From assembly GCA_964363825.1 (NCBI GenBank), contig CAYIJR010000002.1, positions 1 to 32,393 on the forward strand: DNA of 32,393 nt, given 5' to 3'. The notes under the pieces were generated by a model. It searched no databases and was not told the origin of the DNA. It worked only from the letters and a program-made list of their open reading frames with translations. A program made the translations under genes and the position numbers. Each line of letters opens with the position of its first letter. Positions within the stretch are counted from its first letter, which is position 1. Origin of the DNA: an uncultured Candidatus Saccharibacteria bacterium. GTDB taxonomy: Bacteria; Patescibacteriota; Minisyncoccia; Minisyncoccales; Staskawiczbacteraceae. Positions 1,194 through 32,393 of the stretch are shown here, one piece after another.

Positions 1194-1982
1194 ATGCAAA
1201 AAGAAGTTGGATGGTTATTAAAAGAAAAATATGGAGGGGTCAAAACTCCGGCTTTTGATAAAGATGTTAAACGGCTCAACGCCGATGAGCCGTTAGATTA
1301 CGTTATTGGATTTACGGAGTTTTTAGATTGTAAAATAGACTTGTCCAAAAAACCTTTGATTCCGCGCCCCGAAACCGAATTTTGGGTTCAGAAAGCAATA
1401 GAAGAAATATACCCTGATTTTGTAAGCTTACAAAATCAGGGTATAAGGGTTTTGGATATATTTTCGGGCTCGGGATGTATCGGCATTTCTATTGTGGCCC
1501 AGCTAAGCGGGCCAACCCCGCCCAGCGGGGTGCGTCAGATTCTTATTGTGCGACAGATGGTTTTTGCCGAAAAAGAAAAGAAATTTTTAGAGCAAATAAA
1601 AATCAATTGTAAAATAAATAATATTGATAAAAAAAGATATAAGATAATACAATCAGATGTTTTTTCTAATGTAAAAGGGAAATTTAATTACATTTTTGCC
1701 AATCCGCCGTATATTCCAAAAAACAGAAAAAATAAAGTCCAGTCATCGGTTTTAAAATACGAACCAAAGCAGGCGTTGTTTGGGGGAGAAGATGGCTTGT
1801 TGTATATCAGGAAATTTTTGGCCTCGGCCAAAAATTTCCTGAGCCCCGGTGGCAAAATTTTCATGGAATTTGACTATATTCAAAAAATACAGATTGAGGA
1901 GATGCTTAAAAATTATAACTATAAAAACTGGGAATTCCACAAAGATCAATATGGCAAATGGCGCTGGGTTGTTGTACAATAG
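1194..1982 (+). CDS. prmC: Release-factor glutamine N5-methyltransferase (HemK/PrmC)
   Basis: SAM-binding motif [12 protein letters not shown] and catalytic FANPPY (NPPY). The length and order are HemK-like. Confidence 0.88.
1497..1550 (+). repeat. 54-nt in-frame GC-hairpin insertion inside prmC, bounded by direct repeat TATTGTG
   Basis: TATTGTG occurs at 1490-1496 and 1544-1550. Between them lie two hairpin units: ggccc..gggcc (1496-1513) and ccccgc-cca-gcgggg (1516-1530). The segment encodes [18 protein letters not shown] between the SAM motif and the following helix. Confidence 0.85.
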
Positions 1983-3098: not shown

Positions 3099-5546
3099 AT
3101 GCCTCTTATTATATACGCCCTCATCTTAGTTCTCTTTTTGTTATTGTTGGGTTTTTTTATTGCTCTTTTTTCTGAAAAGTCAGAAAAAAATTCGGTCTTT
3201 GGAAAACTGGAAACAGTTTTGTTTTTAGTTTTAATGCCAAAAAACGAATTAAAAAAAGATGATCAAGCGCAAAAAGAAGAGAAGCTTATTATTTCCCAGA
3301 TGGAGCAGGTGCTGGCCAATTTTTTATATTTAAAAAAGCCCAAGTTATTTGGCGAAATTCCATCAGTGGCTTTAGAAATCGCTTCAGAAACCGGCAACCA
3401 GGATATCTCTTTTTATGTTTCCGTCCCAAAATATTTAGAGACCGTCTTTGAAAAGTATGTGCAAGGAGTATATCCGCAGGCTATCGTGGACAAGGTGCCG
3501 CAGGATTATACGGTTTTTGAACCGCTTGGCCAAACAGCCGGGGCTTATTTAAGATTAACCGACAGCGCCCTATTTCCCATCAGCACTTACCAAAAACTGG
3601 AGAAAGACCCTTTGTCCACCATCACCAATAATTTAAATAAAATTGCAACCAATGAAGGGGCGGCCATACAATTGATTATCAGGCCGCTTTCTGCTTCTTA
3701 TATGAGGAAAAAAGGGGAAAAAGCTCTGCAAAAAATCAGGGAAGGCAAGCACGTCAGGAAAGCTGTATCAGAGGTAATGGAAAACCCTTTTATCGGCGTG
3801 CTGTCAGAAATTTTCCAGAGCGCTCCCAAAAAACCGAAAGACGTGCCGGATTTACAAAAAAAAGAACAGGGGATTGACCAGGTCGGGTATGATGCCATCC
3901 AAAGCAAAATCCAAAAACAGCCCTTTGAAACTAATATACGGTTGATTGCTTCGGCAAATACAAAAGAAAGGGCCGAAGACATTGTCAGCCATTTGGTGAG
4001 CGCTTTCAGCCAATTTTCACTATCGGCGACCAATAGTTTGGATGCAGTTTGGGTCAAGGGGGGCGCTTTGAAAAAATTTGTTTATGATGTCAGTTTCAGG
4101 AACTTTAACTCAAGGCAGAGGAACATTTTAAATACCGAAGAACTGGCCAGTATGTATCATTTCCCGACTTCGTTTACCGAAACGCCATATATTAAGGGTA
4201 TGAAGTCAAAAGTGGCGGCGCCTCCATCGGATTTGCCGGAAAAGGGGATTAACTTGATTGGTAAAGTAGTATTCCGCGGAGAAGAGAAAAAGGTGTATTT
4301 TGCTTCAAAGGACGACCGCCGCCGGCATTTTTATATTGTGGGACAGACCGGCACCGGAAAATCCGCTTTTTTGGAAAATATGATAAACCAGGACATTGCC
4401 AATGGCGAAGGCGTGGCGGTAGTGGACCCCCATGGCGAAACCGTGGAGCATGTGCTGGCCAATATTCCCAAAGACAGGATTGACGATGTGGTGCTTTTTG
4501 AGCCGTTTGACTTGGAAAGGCCCATGGGATTGAATATGTTAGAATACGATACGCCAGAACAAAAAGATTTTGCGGTGCAGGAAATGATCGCCATTTTTTA
4601 CAAATTATTCCCGCCCGAAATCATTGGCCCGATGTTTGAGCATTACATGCGAAACGCCATGCTGGCTTTGATGGCCGATCCGCAAAATCCGGGGACACTG
4701 GTGGAAATTCCCAAAATGTTTACCGATCCGGCATTTTTGCAGGAAAGGTTGGATAAAGTTTCCGACCCGGTAGTCAAAAATTTCTGGGTCAAAGAGTGGG
4801 CGCAGACCACGGGCAATACAAGATCGGACATGCTGGGGTATGTGGTTTCCAAAGTCGGGCGATTTATTGAAAACGAAATGATGCGCAATATTATCGGTCA
4901 AAGCCGTTCGGGGTTTGATTTGGCGGAAATCATGGACAACGGTAAAATATTTTTGGCTAATTTGTCAAAGGGCCAAACCGGGGAAGTCAACAGTTCGCTT
5001 TTGGGGCTGATTTTGGTTTCCAAAATCCAAATGGCGGCTATGAAACGGGCCAGGATGCCCGAAAGCCAGCGCAAAGATTTTTATTTGTATGTAGACGAAT
5101 TCCAGAATTTCACTACAGATTCCATTTCCACCATTTTGTCTGAAGCCAGAAAATACAAATTAAATTTGACCATTGCCCACCAGTACATTCCCCAGTTAAC
5201 CGACCAGATTAAAAACGCCGTGCTGGGAAACGTGGGAACCATTGGCGCTTTTCGTATTGGCGCCGAAGATGCCGAATATTTGGAAAAGCAGTTTGAGCCG
5301 GGCTTTTCGCGCTTTGACTTGGTCAATTTGGACAACTTCAGTTTGGTAATAAAAATGATGCTCAACAACAAAACATCCACGCCTTTTAAAATGGAAACCT
5401 ATCCGCCCAAAGAGGGCAAAAACCAAATCATAGACCCCATCAAAAAAATCTCAAAATTAAAATACGGCAAGCCCAAAGCCATGGTAGAGCAAGACATCGC
5501 CCGGCGGTCGTTCGTCTCGCCTTTGCCACCGCCAAGTAACACTTAA
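3099..5546 (+). CDS. VirD4/TraG/TraD-like coupling-type P-loop ATPase with N-terminal TM segment
   Basis: Walker A IVGQTGTGKSAF, Walker B FYLYVDEFQNF, and a TraG-D_C-like ARKYKLNLTIAHQYIPQL. The N-terminus PLIIYALILVLFLLLLGFFIALF is hydrophobic. ATG 3099 is preferred over the track's TTG 3063. Confidence 0.8.
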   Translation: MPLIIYALILVLFLLLLGFFIALFSEKSEKNSVFGKLETVLFLVLMPKNELKKDDQAQKEEKLIISQMEQVLANFLYLKKPKLFGEIPSVALEIASETGNQDISFYVSVPKYLETVFEKYVQGVYPQAIVDKVPQDYTVFEPLGQTAGAYLRLTDSALFPISTYQKLEKDPLSTITNNLNKIATNEGAAIQLIIRPLSASYMRKKGEKALQKIREGKHVRKAVSEVMENPFIGVLSEIFQSAPKKPKDVPDLQKKEQGIDQVGYDAIQSKIQKQPFETNIRLIASANTKERAEDIVSHLVSAFSQFSLSATNSLDAVWVKGGALKKFVYDVSFRNFNSRQRNILNTEELASMYHFPTSFTETPYIKGMKSKVAAPPSDLPEKGINLIGKVVFRGEEKKVYFASKDDRRRHFYIVGQTGTGKSAFLENMINQDIANGEGVAVVDPHGETVEHVLANIPKDRIDDVVLFEPFDLERPMGLNMLEYDTPEQKDFAVQEMIAIFYKLFPPEIIGPMFEHYMRNAMLALMADPQNPGTLVEIPKMFTDPAFLQERLDKVSDPVVKNFWVKEWAQTTGNTRSDMLGYVVSKVGRFIENEMMRNIIGQSRSGFDLAEIMDNGKIFLANLSKGQTGEVNSSLLGLILVSKIQMAAMKRARMPESQRKDFYLYVDEFQNFTTDSISTILSEARKYKLNLTIAHQYIPQLTDQIKNAVLGNVGTIGAFRIGAEDAEYLEKQFEPGFSRFDLVNLDNFSLVIKMMLNNKTSTPFKMETYPPKEGKNQIIDPIKKISKLKYGKPKAMVEQDIARRSFVSPLPPPSNT
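5381..5516 (+). repeat. Direct repeat copy 1 (functional 3' end of the ATPase gene)
   Basis: Matches 6373-6508 at 124 of 136 positions with no gaps (hand alignment). Confidence 0.9.
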
Positions 5547-5664: not shown

Positions 5665-5967
5665 ATGACTAAAATGATGGTAATAAACGCAATAAAAGTT
5701 AAGATAAAAAGCGCAGAGCCTTTTTTGAAGGAAAAATTCCGAGTCAAAAAAATCGGTATTTTCGGTTCGTATTCAAGGGGCGAGCAGAGAAAGAATAGTG
5801 ATATTGATATTCTCGTTGAATTTTATGAAGAACCAAGTTTGTTTGAATTTATACGGTTAGAGCGATACTTAAAGAGTATTTTAAAAATTAAAGTTGATTT
5901 GGTGATGAAAGATTCCTTAAAGCCATACATCGGAAAGCGTATTTTAGACGAAGTAATTTATGTATGA
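5665..5967 (+). CDS. mntA: MntA-type minimal nucleotidyltransferase (antitoxin of HepT/MntA module)
   Basis: GSYSRGEQRKNSDIDILV is the GSxxRG...DxD pol-beta NTase motif. 100 aa. 4-nt ATGA overlap with the next gene. Confidence 0.85.
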   Translation: MTKMMVINAIKVKIKSAEPFLKEKFRVKKIGIFGSYSRGEQRKNSDIDILVEFYEEPSLFEFIRLERYLKSILKIKVDLVMKDSLKPYIGKRILDEVIYV

Positions 5968-6302
5968 AAAAGAGCTCACCAAAAAGGGAGTATAAAAATT
6001 ACGTTTTAGATATTTACCATTCAACAGAAGAAATTGAAAAGTTTGTTGAAGGTTTTACTTTTGAAAAATTTCAGAGTGACAGGAAAACCGTTTACGCTGT
6101 TATCCGCGCCATTGAAATTATTGGCGAGGCGATAAAAAACATTCCCTCGTCGGTAAAAAGCAAACATAAAGAAATTCCATGGCAAGACGCGGCAGATATG
6201 AGAAATAAATTGATACATGAATATTTCGGCGTAAATCTAAAAGTGGTTTGGAAGGCCGTAGAAAAAGATGTTCCGGACTTCAAAATAAAATGCTGGAGTT
6301 AA
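5964..6302 (+). CDS. hepT: HepT-type HEPN toxin (DUF86)
   Basis: RNKLIHEY is the Rx4H HEPN motif followed by the conserved Tyr. 112 aa. Translationally coupled to the NTase gene. Confidence 0.85.
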   Translation: MKKSSPKREYKNYVLDIYHSTEEIEKFVEGFTFEKFQSDRKTVYAVIRAIEIIGEAIKNIPSSVKSKHKEIPWQDAADMRNKLIHEYFGVNLKVVWKAVEKDVPDFKIKCWS

Positions 6303-6372: not shown

Positions 6373-6529
6373 GCCTTTTAAAATGGAAACCTACCCACCC
6401 AAAGAAGGCAGAAACCAAATTATAGACCCGATTAAAAAAATCTCAAAATTAAAATACGTCAAGCCCAAAGCGATGGTGGAACAAGACATCGCCCGGCGGT
6501 CGTTTGTCCAACAATCGCCGATACAATAA
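6373..6529 (+). pseudogene. Orphan relic copy of the ATPase gene 3' end (direct repeat copy 2 plus its own tail and stop)
   Basis: In-frame PFKMETYPPKEGRNQIIDPIKKISKLKYVKPKAMVEQDIARRSFVQQSPIQ*. A TGA stop lies upstream in the same frame at 6344-6346. Confidence 0.85.
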
Positions 6530-6622: not shown

Positions 6623-7072
6623 ATGGTTCAGGAAGATAATTTTTCTATAAAAGAGATTGTTCAATATAATGATTATGATCTCAAAGGGCTAAATAAACTT
6701 TTGCGCCAGTGGTCGGCAACGGGATATCAAATGGATGCCGGTTATTTTAAATCTTTAATCAAGCATAGCCACGTTATTTTATTGTGCGACAAGAAAAAAG
6801 TTATCGGCACGGTTACCTTAATTCCCGTGCATAAACTTTCGGGCAAGAAGGGATCTTTGGAACATTTGATAGTGGATGAAAAATATCGGGGCAGGGGATT
6901 AGGGGAAAAGTTAATGCGTCATGCTATTGAACTTGCCAAAACACTAAACATGGAAACAGTGTTTTTAACCTATGAACCAGACCGGGTCGCGGCGGGTTCG
7001 CTTTATAAAAAATTGGGGTTTAAAATAAAAAAAACAAATTTTTGTTATTTGCACTTAAAAAATGGAAAATAA
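6623..7072 (+). CDS. GNAT family N-acetyltransferase
   Basis: Motif A is LIVDEKYRGRGLGEKLMRHAIELAK. ATG 6623 is preferred to TTG 6614. Confidence 0.8.
   Translation: MVQEDNFSIKEIVQYNDYDLKGLNKLLRQWSATGYQMDAGYFKSLIKHSHVILLCDKKKVIGTVTLIPVHKLSGKKGSLEHLIVDEKYRGRGLGEKLMRHAIELAKTLNMETVFLTYEPDRVAAGSLYKKLGFKIKKTNFCYLHLKNGK
6779..6792 (+). repeat. Copy of the TTATTGTGCGACAA word (inside the GNAT gene, read L-L-C-D-K)
   Basis: Exact ttattgtgcgacaa. Confidence 0.9.
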
Positions 7073-8268: not shown

Positions 8269-9462
8269 ATGAACGAAAATTTCAAAAAAATCATACAAGA
8301 TGAATTAGCGTCAATCAAAGAAAAGGGGCTTTTTAAGGAAGAAAAAATAATTTCTTCAAGACAGGGAAGGGAGATTGTGGTGGATTCAAAAAAGTATTTA
8401 AACTTTTGCTCTAATAATTATTTGGGGTTATCTGGCAGGCAAGAATTGGCCAATGCCGGTAAAAAAGCGCTGGAAAAATGGGGGTTCGGGCTGTCTTCTG
8501 TCAGATTTATCTGCGGAACTTTAAAAATCCACAAAGAACTGGAAAAAAAGCTGGCCCAATTTATGGGTTATGAAGACGCCATTTTGTATACATCTTGTTA
8601 TGATGCCAATACAGGGTTATTCCAGACAATTTTAACAGACCAAGATGCGGTAATCTCTGACGAATTAAATCACGCCTCAATTATTGACGGCATAAGATTG
8701 GCTAAAGCGGAAAGATTGATTTATAAAAATTCTGACATGAAAGATTTGGAAGAAAAACTTTTACAGGCAAAAAACAAAAGATTAAGGCTGATAGTTACCG
8801 ACGGCGTTTTTAGTATGGAGGGAGGAATTGCCAAAGTGAAAGAAATTGTAGATTTGGCCAAAAAATATGATGCCATGACCGTCGTGGACGATTCGCACGC
8901 CACGGGATTCATGGGTAAAACCGGCAAAGGGACGCACGAATTGGCGGGCGTGGGCAATAAAATTGATTTTATAACGTCAACCTTCGGCAAAGCGTTGGGC
9001 GGGGCTTCCGGCGGATTTATTGTTTCTTCTAAAGAAAACATTGAATTTTTAAGGCAAAGATCAAGGAATTATATTTTTTCCAATTCGCTTTCTCCCACTA
9101 TCACAGCGGTTACTTTATTTTTGGTTGATTATATAAAAAAGAATTCAGCCCCAAGAAAAACGCTTTGGGCAAATTTGAGGCGCTTTAGGCAAAAGATGCA
9201 GGAAGCCGGTTTTGAAGTTTCCAAACAAGAGCATCCCATTGTGCCAATTATGCTGGGCGATGCCAAAGTTGCCAAAGAAATGGCAGAAAAACTTTTTAAA
9301 GAGGGAATTTATGTGCGGGCATTCAGTTATCCGGTGGTTCCTGAAGGAAAGGCAAGGATAAGGGTGCAGATTTCAGCCGCCCACACGCAAAAAGACATTG
9401 ATCAAGCCGTTGCGGCATTTGCAAGGGTTTATAAAGCTGTAAAGCGAGAAATTAGAAAATAG
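8269..9462 (+). CDS. kbl: 2-amino-3-ketobutyrate CoA ligase (glycine C-acetyltransferase)
   Basis: PLP-lysine region STFGKALGGASGGF and DDSHATGF. ATG 8269 (MNENFKKI) is preferred, because the track's GTG 8227 lies inside the palindrome. Confidence 0.85.
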   Translation: MNENFKKIIQDELASIKEKGLFKEEKIISSRQGREIVVDSKKYLNFCSNNYLGLSGRQELANAGKKALEKWGFGLSSVRFICGTLKIHKELEKKLAQFMGYEDAILYTSCYDANTGLFQTILTDQDAVISDELNHASIIDGIRLAKAERLIYKNSDMKDLEEKLLQAKNKRLRLIVTDGVFSMEGGIAKVKEIVDLAKKYDAMTVVDDSHATGFMGKTGKGTHELAGVGNKIDFITSTFGKALGGASGGFIVSSKENIEFLRQRSRNYIFSNSLSPTITAVTLFLVDYIKKNSAPRKTLWANLRRFRQKMQEAGFEVSKQEHPIVPIMLGDAKVAKEMAEKLFKEGIYVRAFSYPVVPEGKARIRVQISAAHTQKDIDQAVAAFARVYKAVKREIRK

Positions 9463-9527
9463 TAAATAGAAAATAGAATACGAAATAATAAAAAATTCTA
9501 CTTTCTAACTTCTACTTTCTATTTTCT
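9454..9527. repeat. Word-repeat hairpin (AGAAAATAGAA arm, TTCTACTTTCT arm), same family as 28566-28646
   Basis: tagaaaatagaatacgaaa at 9467-9485, and ttctactttctaacttctactttctattttct on the right arm. The left arm overlaps the kbl stop. Confidence 0.8.
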
Positions 9528-9535
9528 CATCACGC

Positions 9536-11332
9536 ATGTGCGGAATTGTTGGCTACATAGGAAGCAACAAAGCCCTTCCTTTTTTAATGTCAGGATTGAA
9601 AAAATTGGAATACCGGGGTTATGACAGCTCGGGTGTTTGTGTTAAAGAAAACAACGATTTTTATTTGCTTAAAAAACCGGGCAAAGTCAGCGAGCTGGAA
9701 AAAAATATAGAAAAAGAAAATGTTGCCGGTACTGCTGGCATTGCCCACACCCGCTGGGCGACTCATGGTGTTCCCAATGAAAAAAACGCTCATCCCCACA
9801 CAGACTGCACAGGCAAGATTGCCATTGTCCATAACGGCATTGTGGAAAATTACCAAGCATTAAAAGAGTTGCTCGTGCAAGAAGGGCATAAAATAATTTC
9901 AGACACCGATTCAGAAATCATCGCCCATTTGATTGAAAAATTCTACGATGGGGATATTGAAAACGCAACTACCAAAGCTTTAAAATTGATTGAAGGCGCG
10001 TACGGCCTGGCCATTTTGGATAAAAATTCAGAAAAAATAATTGCCGCCCGGAAAAGCAGTCCGTTGGTGTTGGGCATTGGCCAGGGCGAAAACTTTATTG
10101 CATCTGATGCGTCAGCCATTTTGGGCTACACCAAAAATGTCGTGTATTTAGATGACGGAGAAATGGCGGTGATGACCAAAGATAGCTATGTGGTGAAAAA
10201 ATTAAACGGCGAATTAGTAGACAAAAAAGTCCATCAGATTGCCATGACCATTGACCAGATAGAAAAGAGGGGATTCAAGCATTTCATGCTCAAAGAAATT
10301 TTTGAACAGCCCGAAGCCATTGAAAATACCTTGAGGGGTAGAATTATTGGTAATAAAGTAAAGCTCAATATTGATTTGGACTTGTCGTCAATCCAAAGGA
10401 TTATTATTACTGCTTGCGGCACCAGTTGGTATTCCGGGCTCATCGGTAAATACTTGATTGAAAAGTTGGCTGGAATTCCGGTTGAAGTTGATTATGCTTC
10501 GGAATTTCGGTATCGCGATCCTATTGTGCGACAAAGCGATTTGATGATTGTCATTTCGCAATCTGGCGAAACGGCCGACACGCTGGCGGCGCTCAAAGAG
10601 GCAAAGCAAAAAGGGGCCAAGACATTGGGCATTATCAATGTGGTTGGGTCTACCATTTCGCGTGAAGTTGATTCTGGAATTTACTTGCACGCCGGCCCGG
10701 AAATAGGGGTGGCCAGCACTAAGGCTTTTACCTGTCAGGTTACAGCCTTGGCGTTGCTGGCTTTATATTTTAAACAGGAAAAAGGGGAATCGCAAAAGGG
10801 GATATTAGAAGAATTGCCAAAAATACCGGAAAAAATCAGGGAAATTTTGAAAATGTCCGGCGACATACGTAATTTGGCCGAAAAATTTAAAGAGTACAAA
10901 AACTTTTTGTACTTGGGCAGGAATTTGAATTTCCCGGTGGCCTTGGAGGGAGCGTTAAAATTAAAAGAAATTTCGTACATCCATGCCGAAGGGTATCCGG
11001 CGGCCGAAATGAAGCACGGCCCCATTGCATTAATAGACGAAAATATGCCCGTGGTTTTCATTTGCCCCAAAGACGGCACCTATGCCAAAATTTTAAGCAA
11101 CATGGAAGAAGTCAAAGCCCGCGGGGGGAATATCATTGCCATCACCAATGAAGACGACGGCAACATTTCAAAATTGGCAAACCACATTATCAAAGTCCCA
11201 AAAACCATAGACATTTTGTCTCCATTAATCAATGTCATCCCGTTGCAATTGTTGGCCTACCACATCGCCGACTTGAAAGGATTAAATGTTGACAAACCGC
11301 GCAACTTAGCCAAATCCGTGACGGTGGAGTAG
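9536..11332 (+). CDS. glmS: Glutamine--fructose-6-phosphate aminotransferase
   Basis: MCGIVGY N-terminal nucleophile, two SIS domains (ISQSGETADT), C-terminal KSVTVE. 598 aa. Confidence 0.95.
   Translation: MCGIVGYIGSNKALPFLMSGLKKLEYRGYDSSGVCVKENNDFYLLKKPGKVSELEKNIEKENVAGTAGIAHTRWATHGVPNEKNAHPHTDCTGKIAIVHNGIVENYQALKELLVQEGHKIISDTDSEIIAHLIEKFYDGDIENATTKALKLIEGAYGLAILDKNSEKIIAARKSSPLVLGIGQGENFIASDASAILGYTKNVVYLDDGEMAVMTKDSYVVKKLNGELVDKKVHQIAMTIDQIEKRGFKHFMLKEIFEQPEAIENTLRGRIIGNKVKLNIDLDLSSIQRIIITACGTSWYSGLIGKYLIEKLAGIPVEVDYASEFRYRDPIVRQSDLMIVISQSGETADTLAALKEAKQKGAKTLGIINVVGSTISREVDSGIYLHAGPEIGVASTKAFTCQVTALALLALYFKQEKGESQKGILEELPKIPEKIREILKMSGDIRNLAEKFKEYKNFLYLGRNLNFPVALEGALKLKEISYIHAEGYPAAEMKHGPIALIDENMPVVFICPKDGTYAKILSNMEEVKARGGNIIAITNEDDGNISKLANHIIKVPKTIDILSPLINVIPLQLLAYHIADLKGLNVDKPRNLAKSVTVE
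10521..10535 (+). repeat. Copy of the word CTATTGTGCGACAAA (inside glmS, read P-I-V-R-Q)
   Basis: Exact match to the core attgtgcgacaa. Confidence 0.9.
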
Positions 11333-11374: not shown

Positions 11375-11408
11375 ACCCCCAAAACTGACGATCGTCACTT
11401 TTGGGGGT
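11375..11408. other. Long hairpin in a GC-rich non-coding 100-nt stretch after glmS
   Basis: acccccaaaactgacga/tcgtcacttttgggggt is a 16-bp stem with one C-C mismatch. There is no T-run on either strand. Confidence 0.6.
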
Positions 11409-11432: not shown

Positions 11433-11450
11433 CTTATTGTGCGACAAAAT
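11433..11450 (+). repeat. Copy of the word CTTATTGTGCGACAAAAT at the left edge of the high-GC block
   Basis: Exact core, in an intergenic position. Confidence 0.9.
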
Positions 11451-11569: not shown

Positions 11570-12289
11570 GTGAAAATTATCCGCGACGAAAAGCTGGCGA
11601 CGCTTATGTTCGTTCCCGTGGAGAGTAACGAGGTCAAATGGCTTTCTTTGCTCATCAAGACTCTCAAGAAGGGAGACCTGGTACACTACGATGGCAGGGA
11701 AGATGATAAGGAAGATCGCCGGTTCTGCGACATCCATCTGCGCTTTGGCAAGTGGCAGAAGAAGGAGCGCACGAAAAAGTACAAGAATGGAAGTAGCTTC
11801 CGTTGGTCAGAAATCGTGGGTGGGCATAAACTCAAAATCCGTGGAAGCACGGAGCAAGACCGGCACGAGGTCAACCGCGTTCGCAACGGCGCGTGCTATG
11901 TTGGCAGTCTTGTTTACCTTAATGAAGTCGAGGTGGACGGGCAGAGGTCTGTCGTCTTTACCATCGGCTACTGTCCGCACTGCGGCGTGGCAATGATTGA
12001 CTCCACTTCGTGCGAGTGGCGCATCTGCAATGCTTGCGCTGCAAAGTGCAAGCACAACTGGGTCGAAGGTTTGGTGAAAGGGGGCGGCATCCCTGGCGGC
12101 CATGGAGTTGGCAAGTTCTGCGACAAGTGCGGGCGTGGCAAAATGCCCACCAAGAGACAAAAAAAGATGTCTCAAGCAGAACACGCCCTTGAGCTTGAGC
12201 GCAAGCTCGGCTTCCTGACCATCTACAAGAACACGCCCCTCACTCCCAGGCAGATCGTTGAACGGGAAAAAGCTGTTGCTTCCCGCTAA
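11570..12289 (+). CDS. Cys-rich (zinc-ribbon-like) hypothetical protein, 239 aa
   Basis: GTG start 7 nt after GGAG. CPHCG...CEWRICNACAAKCKH...CDKCG cysteine clusters. Sampled GC is about 53%. A clean terminator follows. Confidence 0.6.
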   Translation: MKIIRDEKLATLMFVPVESNEVKWLSLLIKTLKKGDLVHYDGREDDKEDRRFCDIHLRFGKWQKKERTKKYKNGSSFRWSEIVGGHKLKIRGSTEQDRHEVNRVRNGACYVGSLVYLNEVEVDGQRSVVFTIGYCPHCGVAMIDSTSCEWRICNACAAKCKHNWVEGLVKGGGIPGGHGVGKFCDKCGRGKMPTKRQKKMSQAEHALELERKLGFLTIYKNTPLTPRQIVEREKAVASR

Positions 12290-14923: not shown

Positions 14924-15850
14924 ATGAGCATGAAGATCATCAAGAAAAACCTGGTCGTGGAGCTTGAAAAAATCCACACCAACCTGTTTGTCAGGAAGGC
15001 CCTAGATGCCAACCGCAAAAAGCATTTCGAGGATCTCATTGCCGAGATTGTTGCCCTGCAGAACCAGGGCAAGACGCTCGACCCCCAGCTTTTGGACAAT
15101 GTCCGTCCGATGCTGGTCACGCCGGCGTACGAAGTGTTGGGCAACGGCAAGTTGCGGTATCTGCCCGACACCCCTTACTATGAGGGAGTTGATGGCCGGC
15201 ATCGTCACTGGGCCTGGACTGTTCATGGAGTCAAGGAGACTGCCGTGACGGTGGCCGAGTATGAGACCTACGTGGATCTTATTTCGGAGGCCTCAAAAGC
15301 CAATCTTGGCGGTTCTATGCCACCGACTCCCGAAGACCGGAAACTCACCGTACGGAATCTTGTGCAAGCCGGCGCCAGTCACCGCGAAGTCGCTGAAGCC
15401 ATCGGGTTTACGATGGGCATGACTCGTCGCATGGTGGAGCAGGCTAAGGCAGAAATCAACCGTGCCCGGTTGATCGATGCCCTTGACGAGTACCGCCTTG
15501 GCAATACTCCCCTGCCCCAGATTGCCGCAAAGCATCGCGTGGATGAGGATAAGTTACGCGAGCTTGTGGGGGTGTCTGGCCGCCGGGGCAAGAAAAAGAT
15601 CAAGGAGCTGCACACCCAGCTTACCGCCACAGCCAAAGGAAACGCGGCCCGGCGGTCCAAGCTCTTTGCCAGTCTTATGGACAAGTACCAAGACCGGGAA
15701 GTGACGGTCAAGCAAGTCAGGCAAGTGTTCAAACACTTGCAAGATACCTTGGCGCGTCAGGAAAAACACATCAAGGAATGGGAAAGTCGTTTTGAAGCTG
15801 CCATAAGAGGAGGCAGCCAAGATCAAAATGAAAAAAAGGAATCGGCGTAA
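14924..15850 (+). CDS. ParB/Srx-fold (ParB-like nuclease domain) protein with central HTH
   Basis: The VDGRHRHWAW (DGxHR) motif lies about 90 aa from the N-terminus. An HTH-like segment is SHREVAEAIGFTMGMTRRMVEQAK. SD AAGGAGA. Confidence 0.65.
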   Translation: MSMKIIKKNLVVELEKIHTNLFVRKALDANRKKHFEDLIAEIVALQNQGKTLDPQLLDNVRPMLVTPAYEVLGNGKLRYLPDTPYYEGVDGRHRHWAWTVHGVKETAVTVAEYETYVDLISEASKANLGGSMPPTPEDRKLTVRNLVQAGASHREVAEAIGFTMGMTRRMVEQAKAEINRARLIDALDEYRLGNTPLPQIAAKHRVDEDKLRELVGVSGRRGKKKIKELHTQLTATAKGNAARRSKLFASLMDKYQDREVTVKQVRQVFKHLQDTLARQEKHIKEWESRFEAAIRGGSQDQNEKKESA

Positions 15851-15975: not shown

Positions 15976-16377
15976 TTAGTGTTGTAGGACGAAGCCATCA
16001 ACGCTTTGGCTATTGATTTCTCGGAGGCTTCGATTCTCTTCACGAAGGTAGTAATTAGCCTGTTTTAACCCATAAATGGTTCCGATGAGATTGAAGATAC
16101 ATTGGGGTAATTTTTCAATCGGATCTTCGCCTTCTTCGAGTTGGACTATGGGCGTCAGGTTGCTTGCATCAACCTCATTCACAACCCTGTGTTGCGGGTA
16201 AACCAGCTTCAATATGAAGTTACCTGGTGTTCCACTCATTGGGTGTGGTTCGATTTGCTCCACAACCACGCCGAGACTTTCAAAATTTGCTTCGCAGGGA
16301 CCATGGCAAGTGTACGCTACGAGCGTATCTTTCTGAATTTTCACGTTTCTGTCCTCATGTGAGCGAAAGGATGGCAC
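15976..16377 (-). CDS. Hypothetical protein (133 aa), convergent with the ParB-like operon
   Basis: Only a GTG start is available and there is no clear SD. It has its own promoter-like element and terminator. Confidence 0.45.
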   Translation of the reverse strand: MPSFRSHEDRNVKIQKDTLVAYTCHGPCEANFESLGVVVEQIEPHPMSGTPGNFILKLVYPQHRVVNEVDASNLTPIVQLEEGEDPIEKLPQCIFNLIGTIYGLKQANYYLREENRSLREINSQSVDGFVLQH

Positions 16378-19088: not shown

Positions 19089-20285
19089 ATGGCAGAAATT
19101 AAACCACAAACAGTAGAAGATATTCTAAGCAGGGGAGTCCAGGAGGTTATTGTAAGGGAGGATTTAAAGAAAAAATTGCTCTCGGGCAATAAATTGAGGG
19201 TGTATTTTGGCGTTGATCCGACAGGCAGCCAGCTACATTTGGGGCACGCGGTCGTGCTGCGGAAATTGAAAGCATTATCTGATTTGGGCCATGAAGTGAT
19301 TCTTTTGATTGGAGATTTTACGGCTAAAATCGGCGACCCTTCGGGTAGGGATGCCATGAGAGTTCCACTTTCTGACAAGCAAATAAAAGAAAATATGAAA
19401 GATTACAAAAAACAGGCTACGAAAATTTTAGATTTTTCAAAAGTTAAAATAAAATATAATTCACAATGGCTGGCAAAATTACAACTCGCAGATATTTTAC
19501 AGTTATCCTCCTATTTTACAGTTCAACAAATGTTACATCGCGATATGTTTGACAAACGAATAAAAGAAAATAAGGCAATAAGTTTAAGTGAATTTATGTA
19601 TCCGTTAATGCAGGGATATGATTCTGTGGCTATGGATGTTGATTTGGAAATTGGCGGGAATGATCAAATGTTTAATATGTTAATGGGTAGAATGTTGCAA
19701 AAAACATATGGTAGTAAAAAAGACAAGGATATTTTAACAACGAAGCTTTTACCCGGAATTGATGGGCGGAAGATGAGTAAAACCTATAATAACGCGATTT
19801 ACTTAACTGATGAACCAAATGATATGTATGGCAAAATAATGTCTATTAAAGACGAATTGATTTCAGATTATGCAGAGCTTTGCACGGATTTAGATTTGCA
19901 AGAAATTAAAAAAATGCCCAATCCGCGGGATCAAAAGGCAATGCTGGCAAAAGAGGTTGTGAAAATGTATCATGGGGAGAAGGCGGCCGTTCAAGCGGCG
20001 GAAAATTTTGATAAAATTTTCCGCCGGCACGACACGCCCTCTGAAATGCCGATTTTTGAAACCTCGCGCCAAAATTACCCCATTTTAGACTTATTGTGCG
20101 ACAGCGGTCTGGCTGAATCAAAAAATGATGCCAAAAGGGTTATTGAAGGCGGAGGCGTAACCGTCATTGCGAGCGGAGCGAAGCAATCCCTAAAAGTTAC
20201 AGATTGGCGGGAAGAAATAAAAATTGAGGATGGAATGATTATTCAATTCGGCAAAAGAAAGTTTGTAAAAGTTAAATTAAGGTAG
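19089..20285 (+). CDS. tyrS: Tyrosine--tRNA ligase
   Basis: HLGHAV (HIGH), KMSKT (KMSKS), and a C-terminal S4-like domain. Confidence 0.92.
   Translation: MAEIKPQTVEDILSRGVQEVIVREDLKKKLLSGNKLRVYFGVDPTGSQLHLGHAVVLRKLKALSDLGHEVILLIGDFTAKIGDPSGRDAMRVPLSDKQIKENMKDYKKQATKILDFSKVKIKYNSQWLAKLQLADILQLSSYFTVQQMLHRDMFDKRIKENKAISLSEFMYPLMQGYDSVAMDVDLEIGGNDQMFNMLMGRMLQKTYGSKKDKDILTTKLLPGIDGRKMSKTYNNAIYLTDEPNDMYGKIMSIKDELISDYAELCTDLDLQEIKKMPNPRDQKAMLAKEVVKMYHGEKAAVQAAENFDKIFRRHDTPSEMPIFETSRQNYPILDLLCDSGLAESKNDAKRVIEGGGVTVIASGAKQSLKVTDWREEIKIEDGMIIQFGKRKFVKVKLR
20090..20103 (+). repeat. Copy of the word CTTATTGTGCGACA inside tyrS (read L-L-C-D-S)
   Basis: Exact core. Confidence 0.9.
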
Positions 20286-28565: not shown

Positions 28566-28646
28566 GAGAATCTAGAATCTAGAAAATAGAATCTAGAATA
28601 CGAAACGTTCACATTCTATTTTCTACTTTCTATTTTCTACTTTCTA
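28566..28646. repeat. Word-repeat hairpin of the same family as 9454-9527, in a divergent spacer
   Basis: tagaaaatagaat (28580-92) pairs perfectly with attctattttcta (28613-25). It shares tagaatacgaaa and ttctactttct with the kbl-glmS spacer. Confidence 0.85.
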
Positions 28647-28654
28647 ATAAAATT

Positions 28655-29628: not shown

Positions 29629-30129
29629 TTACGCCTCTTTTTTTATTAACGTTTTCGCCATCTCTATCCACTTTGATCGGCGCGGCTTTTGCTTGTACTT
29701 GGCGGTTGATTTGTGGATTTCCATCAAAGTGTGCAAATCACTTTTGGGCCATTTGGCCAAATAGACACCTTTGTTTTTATGGATAATGGCAACCGCTTTT
29801 TGCCACATTTCAAAATCCCGTCTCTTTTTTTCCAGTTGTAATTTATTTTTTTTGAAAAATGGGACAACTGCGTCATGGATGCCATCAATGTCTTGGACAG
29901 AAAACCGCGCTTGGTCTTTGATAATATGTATGTCTCCACAGCCCATCATTTTTTTGACTTTTCCCATCATTTTGGAATTTTCTTTCGGGCTGGTGATTAC
30001 AAATTGCAGCTTCCAACGGTAATAGGTGGGCGAGCCTGTCCTTTCATGCCTTGTGTCTTTGCGGAATTGCAAATCAAAACAGCAGTCGTTGTTAATTAGA
30101 GAGGTAATAGTTGAATTTTCTTTTGCCAT
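29629..30129 (-). CDS. Free-standing single-motif LAGLIDADG-type homing endonuclease homolog (degenerate motif)
   Basis: The I-CreI-like layout aligns by eye: ITSLINNDCCFDLQF (motif position), RWKLQFVITS, MGCGDIHIIKDQARFSVQDIDGIHDAVVPFFKKNKLQLEKKRRDFEMW. ATG 30129. Confidence 0.65.
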   Translation of the reverse strand: MAKENSTITSLINNDCCFDLQFRKDTRHERTGSPTYYRWKLQFVITSPKENSKMMGKVKKMMGCGDIHIIKDQARFSVQDIDGIHDAVVPFFKKNKLQLEKKRRDFEMWQKAVAIIHKNKGVYLAKWPKSDLHTLMEIHKSTAKYKQKPRRSKWIEMAKTLIKKEA

Positions 30130-30151
30130 AATATTATTATAGCAAAGAATT

Positions 30152-30165
30152 AGTTGTGCGACAAT
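30152..30165 (+). repeat. Variant copy of the word (AGTTGTGCGACAAT)
   Basis: The core ttgtgcgacaa is exact. Confidence 0.75.
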
Positions 30166-30173
30166 CCCCAAAT

Positions 30174-30210
30174 CTTATTGTGCGACTCCGCTTAGCGGGG
30201 TGCGACAAAT
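30174..30210 (+). repeat. Composite unit: word interrupted by GC hairpin
   Basis: cttattgtgcgac-tccgc-tta-gcgggg-tgcgacaaat. Confidence 0.9.
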
Positions 30211-30898: not shown

Positions 30899-30934
30899 TT
30901 TATTGTGCGACCCCGCTTAGCGGGGTGCGACAAG
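30899..30934 (+). repeat. Composite unit: word interrupted by GC hairpin
   Basis: tttattgtgcgac-cccgc-tta-gcgggg-tgcgacaag, directly after the rdgB terminator hairpin gcctcgc..gcggggc-ttttt. Confidence 0.9.
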
Positions 30935-31540: not shown

Positions 31541-31597
31541 CTTATTGTGCGACCCCGCTTAGCGGGGTGCGACAAAATCATGGATGTCGCACAATAA
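31541..31597. repeat. Composite unit plus the only reverse-orientation copy of the word (inverted pair)
   Basis: cttattgtgcgac-cccgc-tta-gcgggg-tgcgacaaaat (31541-77), catggat, then tgtcgcacaataa (31585-97). Confidence 0.9.
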
Positions 31598-31667
31598 AAA
31601 TGGGCGAGGCATCGGTGGGCGAGGGGAGTAGTACGATTTAAGATTTTTGATTTTAGATTGCAGATTT

Positions 31668-31684
31668 CTATTGTGCGACAAATT
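31668..31684 (+). repeat. Copy of the word CTATTGTGCGACAAATT, 11 nt from the recombinase stop codon
   Basis: Exact core. Confidence 0.9.
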
Positions 31685-31694
31685 GGGCAGGGGA

Positions 31695-32393
31695 TTAGGA
31701 TTTCAAATTTTTGCCGCTGTGGAATTGACGGTGGATATCGCGCAGGCGCTTGTTGGTTACGTGTGTGTAAATTTGAGTGGTGGCAATATTTTTATGGCCC
31801 AAAAATTCCTGGATAGTGCGCAAGTCAACTCCTTGGTTGAGCAAATCCGTGGCGTAAGAATGGCGAAGCGTATGGGGAGTGGTAAAAACAGGTATGCCGG
31901 CCATGATAGCATATTTTTTAACAATCCTTTCAATGGATCTTGAAGTCAGCCTTCCGCCAGATTTGTCTTTAGCCCGAAAATTCAAGAATAAAGCTTTTTC
32001 TTTTGAGTTGCGTATGGACATATACTTTTTAATCCATTCCAAAGCCCTTTCTGAAAAGTACACAGTGCGGGGATTTCCCCCTTTGCCAATGATGCCGATT
32101 TCAAAATCTTTCTTGTCTTTTATATTTGCAAACTGTTCGGTGTTGAGAGCCACTAATTCGGCGATTCTCAAGCCGGTTGAAAAAAAACTTTCAAGAATGG
32201 TGCGATCCCTGATGGCGGTATAGTTTTTGGGTTCGGCAGCGGTTAAAAGCTTCTCTACTTGCTCTAAAGCAAGGAATTTGACGGTTTTTTCGCTTTTATT
32301 GCCCTTAGGAAGGGTTATTTTATCAGGGGGCAATGAAAGTATGTCTTTAGTCACAAAATAGCCTAAAAAGGCCCTTAATGCGATTAAATAGTA
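31695..32393 (-). CDS. Tyrosine recombinase, XerC/XerD-like (5' end beyond the window)
   Basis: GLRIAEL (Arg I), HTLRHSYATDLLNQGVDLRTIQEFLGHKNIATTQIYTHV (RHR-Y catalytic set). The frame stays open upstream of the track start to nt 32393 (YYLIALRAFLGYFV). Confidence 0.85.
   Translation of the reverse strand, partial: YYLIALRAFLGYFVTKDILSLPPDKITLPKGNKSEKTVKFLALEQVEKLLTAAEPKNYTAIRDRTILESFFSTGLRIAELVALNTEQFANIKDKKDFEIGIIGKGGNPRTVYFSERALEWIKKYMSIRNSKEKALFLNFRAKDKSGGRLTSRSIERIVKKYAIMAGIPVFTTPHTLRHSYATDLLNQGVDLRTIQEFLGHKNIATTQIYTHVTNKRLRDIHRQFHSGKNLKS

Follow-up and report, generated by a model that had tools for sequence, protein, structure and literature searches.

A putative 36-nucleotide palindromic repeat in frame within a 13-nucleotide word of prmC in a groundwater member of the Candidate Phyla Radiation

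Rickettsia palindromic elements (RPEs) are palindromic repeats that lie in frame in conserved, unrelated genes and are read through, that occur between genes as well, and that have no known transposase (PMC10969869). Here we describe a candidate element of a similar kind in the gene prmC of an uncultured Candidatus Saccharibacteria bacterium (Staskawiczbacteraceae; Candidate Phyla Radiation, CPR), on a stretch of contig CAYIJR010000002.1 of 32,393 nucleotides (nt), the one contig of this genome that our analysis covered and hereafter called the window. Repetitive extragenic palindromes (REPs) are hardly ever found within genes and share a conserved GT(A/G)G head, and the GC clusters, double-hairpin elements and byps of fungal mitochondria are short GC-rich hairpins in an AT-rich genome that also stand in frame in coding regions; byps are organellar and are skipped by ribosome hopping. 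To our knowledge, RPEs have not been reported to use one defined target word; and for in-frame palindromic inserts in CPR genomes, the word described below and REP elements in Patescibacteria, we found no description in the searchable literature.

The host gene (1194-1982, + strand, 262 residues) is, judged from its sequence, a HemK/PrmC-type release-factor glutamine N5-methyltransferase, an essential gene of this groundwater bacterium. The features expected of the family, namely a class I S-adenosylmethionine (SAM)-dependent fold with GxGxG and NPPY motifs and homology to HemK structures, are all present: GSGCIG and NPPY both lie in the open reading frame (ORF), Pfam MTS is matched, and the PDB entries 1sg9, 1nv8, 2b3t and 1t43, all HemK structures, are matched with E = 2e-16. 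Homologues from Candidatus Staskawiczbacteria carry the source name release-factor glutamine methyltransferase. The assignment of the ORF to the HemK type in a preliminary description of this DNA is thus borne out.

Inside a native copy of a 13-nt word in this gene, TTATT(G/A)TG^CGACA (the caret marks the cut), lies what we read as an in-frame palindromic repeat of 36 nt and 12 codons (1497-1532, +). Its limits come from a comparison of 39 close PrmC homologues, 80 prmC loci of species-representative genomes and several contigs for single homologues. The distance from the GSG motif to QIKIN is 29 residues in 67 of the 87 scored prmC loci, as against 42 (29+12+1) in the window and 41 (29+12) in a second species, L001 (Logan SRR25547171). 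Because of this spacing and of the L001 junction, the insert is 36 nt and not the 54 nt proposed before, with ends that can be shifted by as much as 3 nt, GTG being present on either side. The earlier proposal was drawn from two copies of TATTGTG (1490-1496 and 1544-1550), which sequence and ORF confirm to enclose 54 nt in frame and free of stops. These copies are not a target duplication flanking the insert; they are the left halves of two words, the first split (TATTGTG^...^CGTCA), the second whole (1543-1555). What is left of the proposed unit, 18 nt, is host sequence, comprising the second, intact word and one codon extra relative to all relatives, and the protein said to be restored by removing 1497-1550 would have a linker 5 residues short of every relative.

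The window junction reads TCTATTGTG^36 nt^CGTCA, so that the native word is cut between TG and CG. Its left half (1488-1496, +) encodes S-I-V at the end of helix αA, where prmC of the Staskawiczbacteria clade appears to carry the word natively; its right half (1533-1537, +) is a degenerate CGTCA instead of the CGACA that L001 has there. The intact copy, TTATTGTGCGACA (1543-1555, +; codons L-I-V-R-Q), lies in a stretch that replaces KNAK of the relatives. Folded as single-stranded DNA, 1497-1532 is predicted to form two hairpins (-12.7 kcal/mol, z = -3.6; 1 of 200 shuffles was equally good), in keeping with the two GC hairpins described before: GCCC(A)GC-TAA-GCGGGC with a bulged A (1497-1512, +), and A-CCCCGC-CCA-GCGGGG-T (1515-1531, +). 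The stem of the second is the same as in three intergenic CCCCGC-TTA-GCGGGG units of the window, and the first, by inspection, is like the intergenic hairpin with the loop orientation reversed.

The comparison of filled and empty sites upholds the earlier proposal that a palindromic repeat has inserted into prmC in frame. In L001 the gene reads TCTATTATG/GCCCAGCTgAGCGGGCCAACCCCGCCtAGCGGGGTG/CGACAATTT, that is, the 36-mer followed by a normal linker, with CGACAA directly after the element. Empty sites of the form TCTATTATG^CGACA(A/T/C), carrying the word with one G/A difference, are found in L010, L029 and L092, and L023 has TATATTATG^CGACA. The insert is also missing, as the earlier description had expected of orthologues, from most other relatives, including the closest one (P0002/L002, 74% amino acid identity in the multiple alignment), which has neither word nor insert at the junction. 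The 36-mers of the window and L001 agree at 34 of 36 nt (94%) and at all 12 residues, with both changes in hairpin loops, whereas outside the insert the identity of the two genes is 71% at the nucleotide level and 64% at the amino acid level; amino acid identity is likewise 64% over the whole gene, and the core identity is 67%. A codon-level test of the age of the insert was not significant alone (identical codons 10/12 inside and 92/151 outside, p = 0.21), and the conservation argument uses nucleotide and amino acid identity instead. The prmC tree places L001 (P0003) and the empty-site L092 (P0120) as sisters in 200 of 200 bootstraps, and in it the window gene (P0001) shares a small clade with P0003 in no more than 2 of 200. 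The preliminary description had considered that a distant orthologue might carry a homologous segment: L001 does carry the homologous 12 residues, but with the same DNA hairpins and with a sister that is empty, which argues for mobility.

In the protein, the insert corresponds to residues 102-113. Our AlphaFold model of PrmC, built on the 39-sequence alignment (predicted local distance difference test, pLDDT, 92; predicted template-modelling score, pTM, 0.88), has a strand at 84-89, a helix at 95-104, a coil at 105-118 and a strand at 119-126, with a pLDDT of 62-70 across residues 101-120 and of 97 on either flank. From this layout and the dip in pLDDT, we infer that the insert extends the connection between helix αA and strand β2; it is modelled as a low-confidence surface loop, as anticipated. 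By the topology of class I folds, this connection would sit on the side opposite the SAM pocket, where β2 has its N-terminal end, and the alignment with Thermotoga maritima HemK has a 14-residue gap opposite the insert. As its length is a multiple of three and it holds no stop, the insert would be read through, and the enzyme would tolerate the 12 extra residues as a loop on that side of its Rossmann fold which faces away from the SAM pocket.

Judged by sequence, at least three unrelated hairpin inserts share the prmC junction in other Staskawiczbacteria. At TG^CG, a family of the form TCCCGAT...ATCGGGA is present with 48 nt in L005 and L008 and with 60 nt in L007, a single long hairpin of 42 nt in L006/L012, and two AT-rich hairpins of 75 nt in L048; all have lengths that are multiples of three, lack stops and fold with z between -2.6 and -8.6. 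Between filled and empty sites, neither the 42-nt nor the 48-nt insert shows any duplication, and the 36-mer allows only a 2-3-nt overlap. The terminal inverted repeats and fixed-length target-site duplication of a classical miniature inverted-repeat transposable element are thus not the pattern found here.

The same word is struck in a second core gene. rplU, which encodes ribosomal protein L21, carries the native word in the codons EVLLCD in L005, L006, L010, L038 and L051. In rplU of L002 it is cut at TG^CG by a 42-nt hairpin (9158-9199) that adds 14 residues in frame and is of one family with the prmC insert of L006: neither copy loses any of the 15 base pairs (15 of 15), 5 of which are maintained through double compensatory changes. 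In rplU of L007 the word is split by a 20-nt perfect hairpin (4728-4747). Among 120 L21 homologues (P0121-P0240), 83 have the modal spacing, and at least five insert classes occur at EVLLC/D. Word halves enclosing a strongly folded segment were found in 17 cases, all on the + strand, against a mean of 3.8 and a maximum of 8 for 25 permuted half-site pairs. The preliminary description, whose observation is confirmed in part and whose interpretation is supported in part, missed the word-centred site and its recurrence, including that in rplU.

Further extra segments were seen in both proteins. L21 of several Staskawiczbacteria has in-frame hairpin inserts of 7-20 residues at EVLLC/D, such as WDARASRKAGDPVL, LPAGRQAT and LCPSEALAKEGA. 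The PrmC alignment holds extra segments in P0004, P0010, P0019, P0025, P0039, P0083, P0103, P0113 and others; one is an N-terminal extension, KEIHPVKYRGAVILPKTKLFNRV, and loop inserts include RRSLGEGG, SSGQNL and CEDSAESVAISSSSVGLPRFARNDD, those of the RRSLGEGG type splitting a second word site (LL/.../CD). These PrmC segments look like other small GC-rich repeats in translation. At L021 (10776-10870), an intact word directly after the prmC stop is followed in intergenic DNA by two strong hairpins (79 nt) and then by GGTTATG^CGACAG.

Three intergenic composite units of the window, all on the + strand, have the general form TTATTGTG/CGAC(C/T)CCGCTTAGCGGGGTG/CGACAA. The unit at 30175-30208 is a word split by a 20-nt hairpin (TTATTGTG/CGACTCCGCTTAGCGGGGTG/CGACAA), that at 30900-30933 stands directly 3' of the terminator of a Ham1-family gene, and that at 31542-31575 follows a MOSC-domain gene and is itself followed by an inverted word (31585-31597, -). 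The window has 4 copies of the 3' hairpin with its flank, CCCGCNNAGCGGGGTGCGNCA, where 0 are expected, one in prmC and the others at 30187, 30912 and 31554, which agrees with the earlier assignment of the prmC hairpin and the intergenic units at 30.2-31.6 kb to one family.

The word itself is real in the contig, as had been claimed: with up to 2 mismatches allowed, CTTATTGTGCGACA matches the window 10 times where 0.19 would be expected, and of 11 copies of the core TTGTGCGAC, 10 stand on the + strand. We surveyed 86 non-redundant Parcubacteria loci (1.3 Mb) and found TTATTGTGCGACA, at up to 1 mismatch, 48 times against about 1.6 expected by our own calculation, with 47 of the 48 on the prmC strand. 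There are 11 copies per 32 kb in the window and 0-3 per 8-20 kb in relatives; the word is on a par with the best-conserved coding 12-mers of the query prmC despite its many different positions, and its conservation reaches only two T's further upstream. In the neighbourhood of prmC it takes three registers by lineage, TTA TTG TGC GAC (LLCD), CTT ATT GTG CGA CAG (LIVRQ, in the window) and T CAT TGT GCG ACA (HCAT), H/YCAT being the translation of the third frame. The copy in tyrS (20091-20103, +, frame LLCD) has essentially the same position in L006 (gene offsets 1007 and 1011). Since all three frames are used and the positions in rplU and tyrS are conserved, selection seems to act on the DNA rather than on the protein.

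Further copies in the window stand in a GNAT acetyltransferase gene (6779-6791, +, intact, frame LLCD), in glmS (10521-10533, +, CTATTGTGCGACA, frame IVRQ), where the product presumably shows no length change relative to E. coli GlmS, in intergenic DNA downstream of glmS (11434-11446, +, intact), and just downstream of a tyrosine-recombinase gene (31668-31680, +, CTATTGTGCGACA), where the copy forms an inverted pair with 31585-31597. Intergenic copies tend to stand just behind the end of a gene or a terminator. Of the locus DNA, + strand ORFs take up about 80% and - strand ORFs 12%, with too few words near - strand genes to tell co-orientation with transcription from that with replication. A role of the word as a sigma-70 -35 box was considered and rejected: one intergenic copy offers GCGACA-17-TATAAT, but a -10 box follows in 3 of 47 cases against 4.6 in controls.

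Taken at the strength that the sequences allow, 1497-1532 is probably, if by no means surely, a target-specific micro hairpin element of RPE- or REP-like kind. It would be a non-autonomous repeat of two small GC-rich stem-loops, of one family with the intergenic units, that entered the centre (TG^CG) of the word without a fixed target duplication; hairpin elements of 20-76 nt, as a set, would land preferentially in the word. The sequences themselves show insertion at a defined bond of the word, a single orientation, stems maintained by compensation and the return of insert families at different copies of the word. Such elements may move as folded single-stranded DNA through a putative sequence-specific nuclease-ligase, with the nearest chemistry in HUH/Y1 enzymes (IS200/IS605, REP-RAYT). 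A wider proposal, that a clade-wide, strand-specific word of Parcubacteria, TTATTGTGCGACA, is kept by selection on DNA and doubles as the attachment site of these ultra-small mobile elements, we put forward tentatively, as something that could well prove wrong.

Several observations weigh against the reading as a micro hairpin element. The window holds no transposase, HUH or RAYT gene (Y1, Y2, DDE and Y1_Tnp were unmatched among its ORFs). The termini of the elements differ between insert classes, and the point of insertion shifts by a few bases: it is TTATTG^TG in the L013-type inserts (LL/.../CD) of other PrmC lineages and lies after the word, behind GAC, in L091 rplU, as compared with TG^CG for the inserts of 48 and 42 nt. 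Save for a few nodes, resolution of the prmC tree is poor, P0001 pairing with P0002 in only 133 of 200 bootstraps. The complete 36-mer was seen in prmC only, in the window, L001 and L009, the last being the single hit of a scan of the metagenome collection, so that mobility of the two-hairpin form rests on two prmC lineages and on likeness to the intergenic units. An ancient insertion with repeated precise loss may be an alternative history.

We consider it unlikely, but worth weighing, that word and hairpin together form a functional DNA or RNA signal (for uptake, recombination, chromosome orientation or as a recombinase arm) beside which hairpins are selected, the prmC copy then being such a signal that falls in coding DNA by chance. 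The enrichment and strand-specificity of the word across the 86 loci, its presence in all three prmC frames and its conservation in rplU and tyrS, which point to selection on DNA, would all fit such a signal, as would the compensatory changes that keep the stems and the inverted word pair (11+8+11) about 100 nt from the tyrosine-recombinase gene. However, most copies of the word have no hairpin, the hairpins found at one site are unrelated in sequence, number and length, -10 boxes are not enriched downstream of the word, and Rfam gives no match; the loci of relatives hold only about one word per 30-60 kb, and a homologue of the recombinase is present in one other locus only. The strong strand bias is also unlike known uptake sequences. 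That the word is instead a recurrent cut site of a nuclease or recombinase, with the hairpins as captured or synthesised filler from break and repair, strikes us as improbable. Different, unrelated inserts at exactly the same phosphodiester bond, with neither target duplication nor conserved termini, are what this explanation would predict, and a free-standing LAGLIDADG gene and the tyrosine-recombinase gene do flank the word cluster at 29.6-32.4 kb. Against it, insert families return at separate loci and in separate genomes, that of 42 nt in both prmC and rplU and the CCCCGC hairpin in prmC as well as at three intergenic sites, which would not be expected of random filler; by inspection the inserts are not derived from flanking sequence, and the conserved 13 nt are shorter than typical LAGLIDADG targets.

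Ordinary lineage-specific expansion of a PrmC loop by slippage or duplication and drift, with coincidental hairpins, is disfavoured and has, in our estimate, very little probability. The αA-β2 linker is variable in length in many lineages, and low model confidence in the insert region fits a weakly constrained loop; yet the insert shares with the three intergenic copies a 21-nt pattern for which 0 matches are expected, its folding is significant by z-score, the near-identity of the 36-mers exceeds by far that of the genes around them, and the same family of insert occurs in rplU with compensatory changes in the stem. The chance that the region 1480-1560 is an assembly artefact or chimera, a concern raised in the preliminary description, is close to nil. 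We found no support for it: an independent assembly from Hainich groundwater (L009, ERZ1292623, a contig of 1516 nt) carries prmC and insert identical to the window, a second species (L001) has the same insert at the same site, and the reading frame is intact. L009, in the same prmC gene, was also the sole match in a scan of metagenome contigs with the two-hairpin pattern AGCGGGCCAACCCCGCNNAGCGGGG, and a scan of viral contigs for the intergenic unit gave no match.

Set against the described systems, the micro hairpin element is closest to RPEs in that the prmC insert is in frame, free of stops and in a surface loop, as is expected of that class, and in that an insert of this kind also occurs in L002 rplU; like RPEs, the units are found between genes too. 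The earlier suggestion of an element of the Rickettsia palindromic type, only far smaller, thus holds for the in-frame insertion but not for the length: RPEs are about 100-150 bp and fall into sequence families of their own, whereas the element has 36 nt, and the set as a whole 20-76 nt (2-7 times smaller), with no Rfam match. One 13-nt word is here struck repeatedly at one bond; the host belongs to CPR/Parcubacteria and not to Rickettsia, and no sequence kinship is expected. With REP/BIME-RAYT and IS200/IS605-derived elements the inserts share tiny hairpins, sometimes paired in opposite sense, next to a short target, in fixed orientation and with stem structure kept. They differ from these in that copies are intragenic in prmC and rplU, in that no GTAG/GTGG head is common to the classes, whose termini differ, and in that no Y1 or RAYT gene accompanies them in the window. 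The left flank TT(G/A)TG, the lack of a fixed duplication and the single orientation recall IS200/IS605, but the inserts include single hairpins and a point of insertion shifting by 2-5 nt.

Unlike byps, the present inserts keep the frame and are free of stops; no shared target word is known for the mitochondrial elements. The word is like the DNA uptake sequences of Neisseria and the uptake signal sequences of Pasteurellaceae (10-13 nt) in being over-represented in coding DNA in all frames and in non-coding DNA, often after terminators, and in being common to relatives; it differs from them in its orientation (47:1) and its low density in most relatives, and uptake sequences are not known as insertion sites of hairpins. 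Integron attC sites and the attP hairpin of CTX phage, used with XerCD, likewise combine structured hairpins with a short site, and a tyrosine-recombinase gene does stand beside the densest words. In contrast to those systems, most inserts have no core in common with the word on the two sides and therefore leave no duplicated crossover, there are no cassette ORFs, and the recombinase is missing from most of the related loci.

The neighbourhood of the densest words deserves description of its own. The recombinase ORF (31695-32354, -; 219 aa) has an XerC/D-like catalytic domain only; it was rejected as a general partner of the word, since of about 90 loci searched by tblastn just 1 has a homologue. 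Just downstream of its gene stand three words of alternating orientation, at 31542 (+), 31597 (-) and 31668 (+) (window 31541-31680), and GGGTGCGACAA / AATCATGG / ATGTCGCACAA at 31563-31595 form an 11+8+11 arrangement resembling a core site, about 100 nt from the gene. Comparison with tyrosine-recombinase core sites yielded this one inverted pair with an 8-nt spacer; most words are solitary, and the 42- and 48-nt inserts lack a duplicated core. The inverted words 31585-31597 and 31668-31680, around about 70 nt, are a possible recombination or inversion site. An ORF for a LAGLIDADG endonuclease (29629-30171, -; Pfam E = 3.7e-10), free-standing and outside any rRNA or intron context, adjoins the words at 30154 and 30175.

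Elsewhere the window ORFs comprise housekeeping genes, an MNT/HepT pair and a type IV secretion system (T4SS)-coupling-like ATPase besides the LAGLIDADG and recombinase ORFs; Rfam gave no family anywhere in the window, and no tRNA was found in or near the insert. A direct repeat of 136 nt, 91% identical, stands at 5381-5516 and 6373-6508, the 3' end of the gene for the 827-aa ATPase being repeated beyond a toxin-antitoxin pair of the MNT/HepT (nucleotidyltransferase/HEPN) type (5665-6302), as though the pair had inserted there and duplicated its target. Downstream of glmS, a near-perfect palindrome of 34 nt, ACCCCCAAAACTGACGATCGTCACTTTTGGGGGT (11375-11408), precedes a word. The region of the ORF at 11570-12289 (239 aa, Cys-rich, about 50% GC) is probably foreign DNA. 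Its sub-threshold match to Zn_Tnp_IS91 was rejected as evidence of an IS91 transposase, as the ORF has no catalytic domain and the match is judged a zinc-finger coincidence. The most GC-rich stretch of the contig (14500-16000, 0.49-0.57 against about 0.40) holds ORFs of 308 aa (14924-15850) and 132 aa (15976-16377, -) that have no Pfam match. Purine- and pyrimidine-rich repeat blocks, TAGAAAATAGAA / TTCTATTTTCTA, lie in intergenic DNA at 9446-9527 and 28566-28652, both direct and inverted to each other.

Our comparisons suggest that the use of the word as a target is the part most likely to be new, the in-frame hairpin inserts themselves matching the known RPE kind. If the proposed role of the word is correct, it would imply a machinery for sequence-specific insertion of single-stranded DNA in CPR bacteria and an in-frame remodelling of the surface loops of core proteins; word and hairpin together would give a handle for finding the responsible enzyme in CPR genomes. 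Filled and empty words should help to date insertions between strains, and to mark odd extra segments in CPR proteins as repeat-derived and not as functional domains. With its near-absolute strand bias and its use of all three frames, the word is also a candidate for a chromosome-level signal in the CPR. Small hairpins that land in a 13-nt word and are read as protein loops would, finally, provide cheap and recurrent loop variation in some of the most conserved genes (L21, PrmC) of these minimal genomes.

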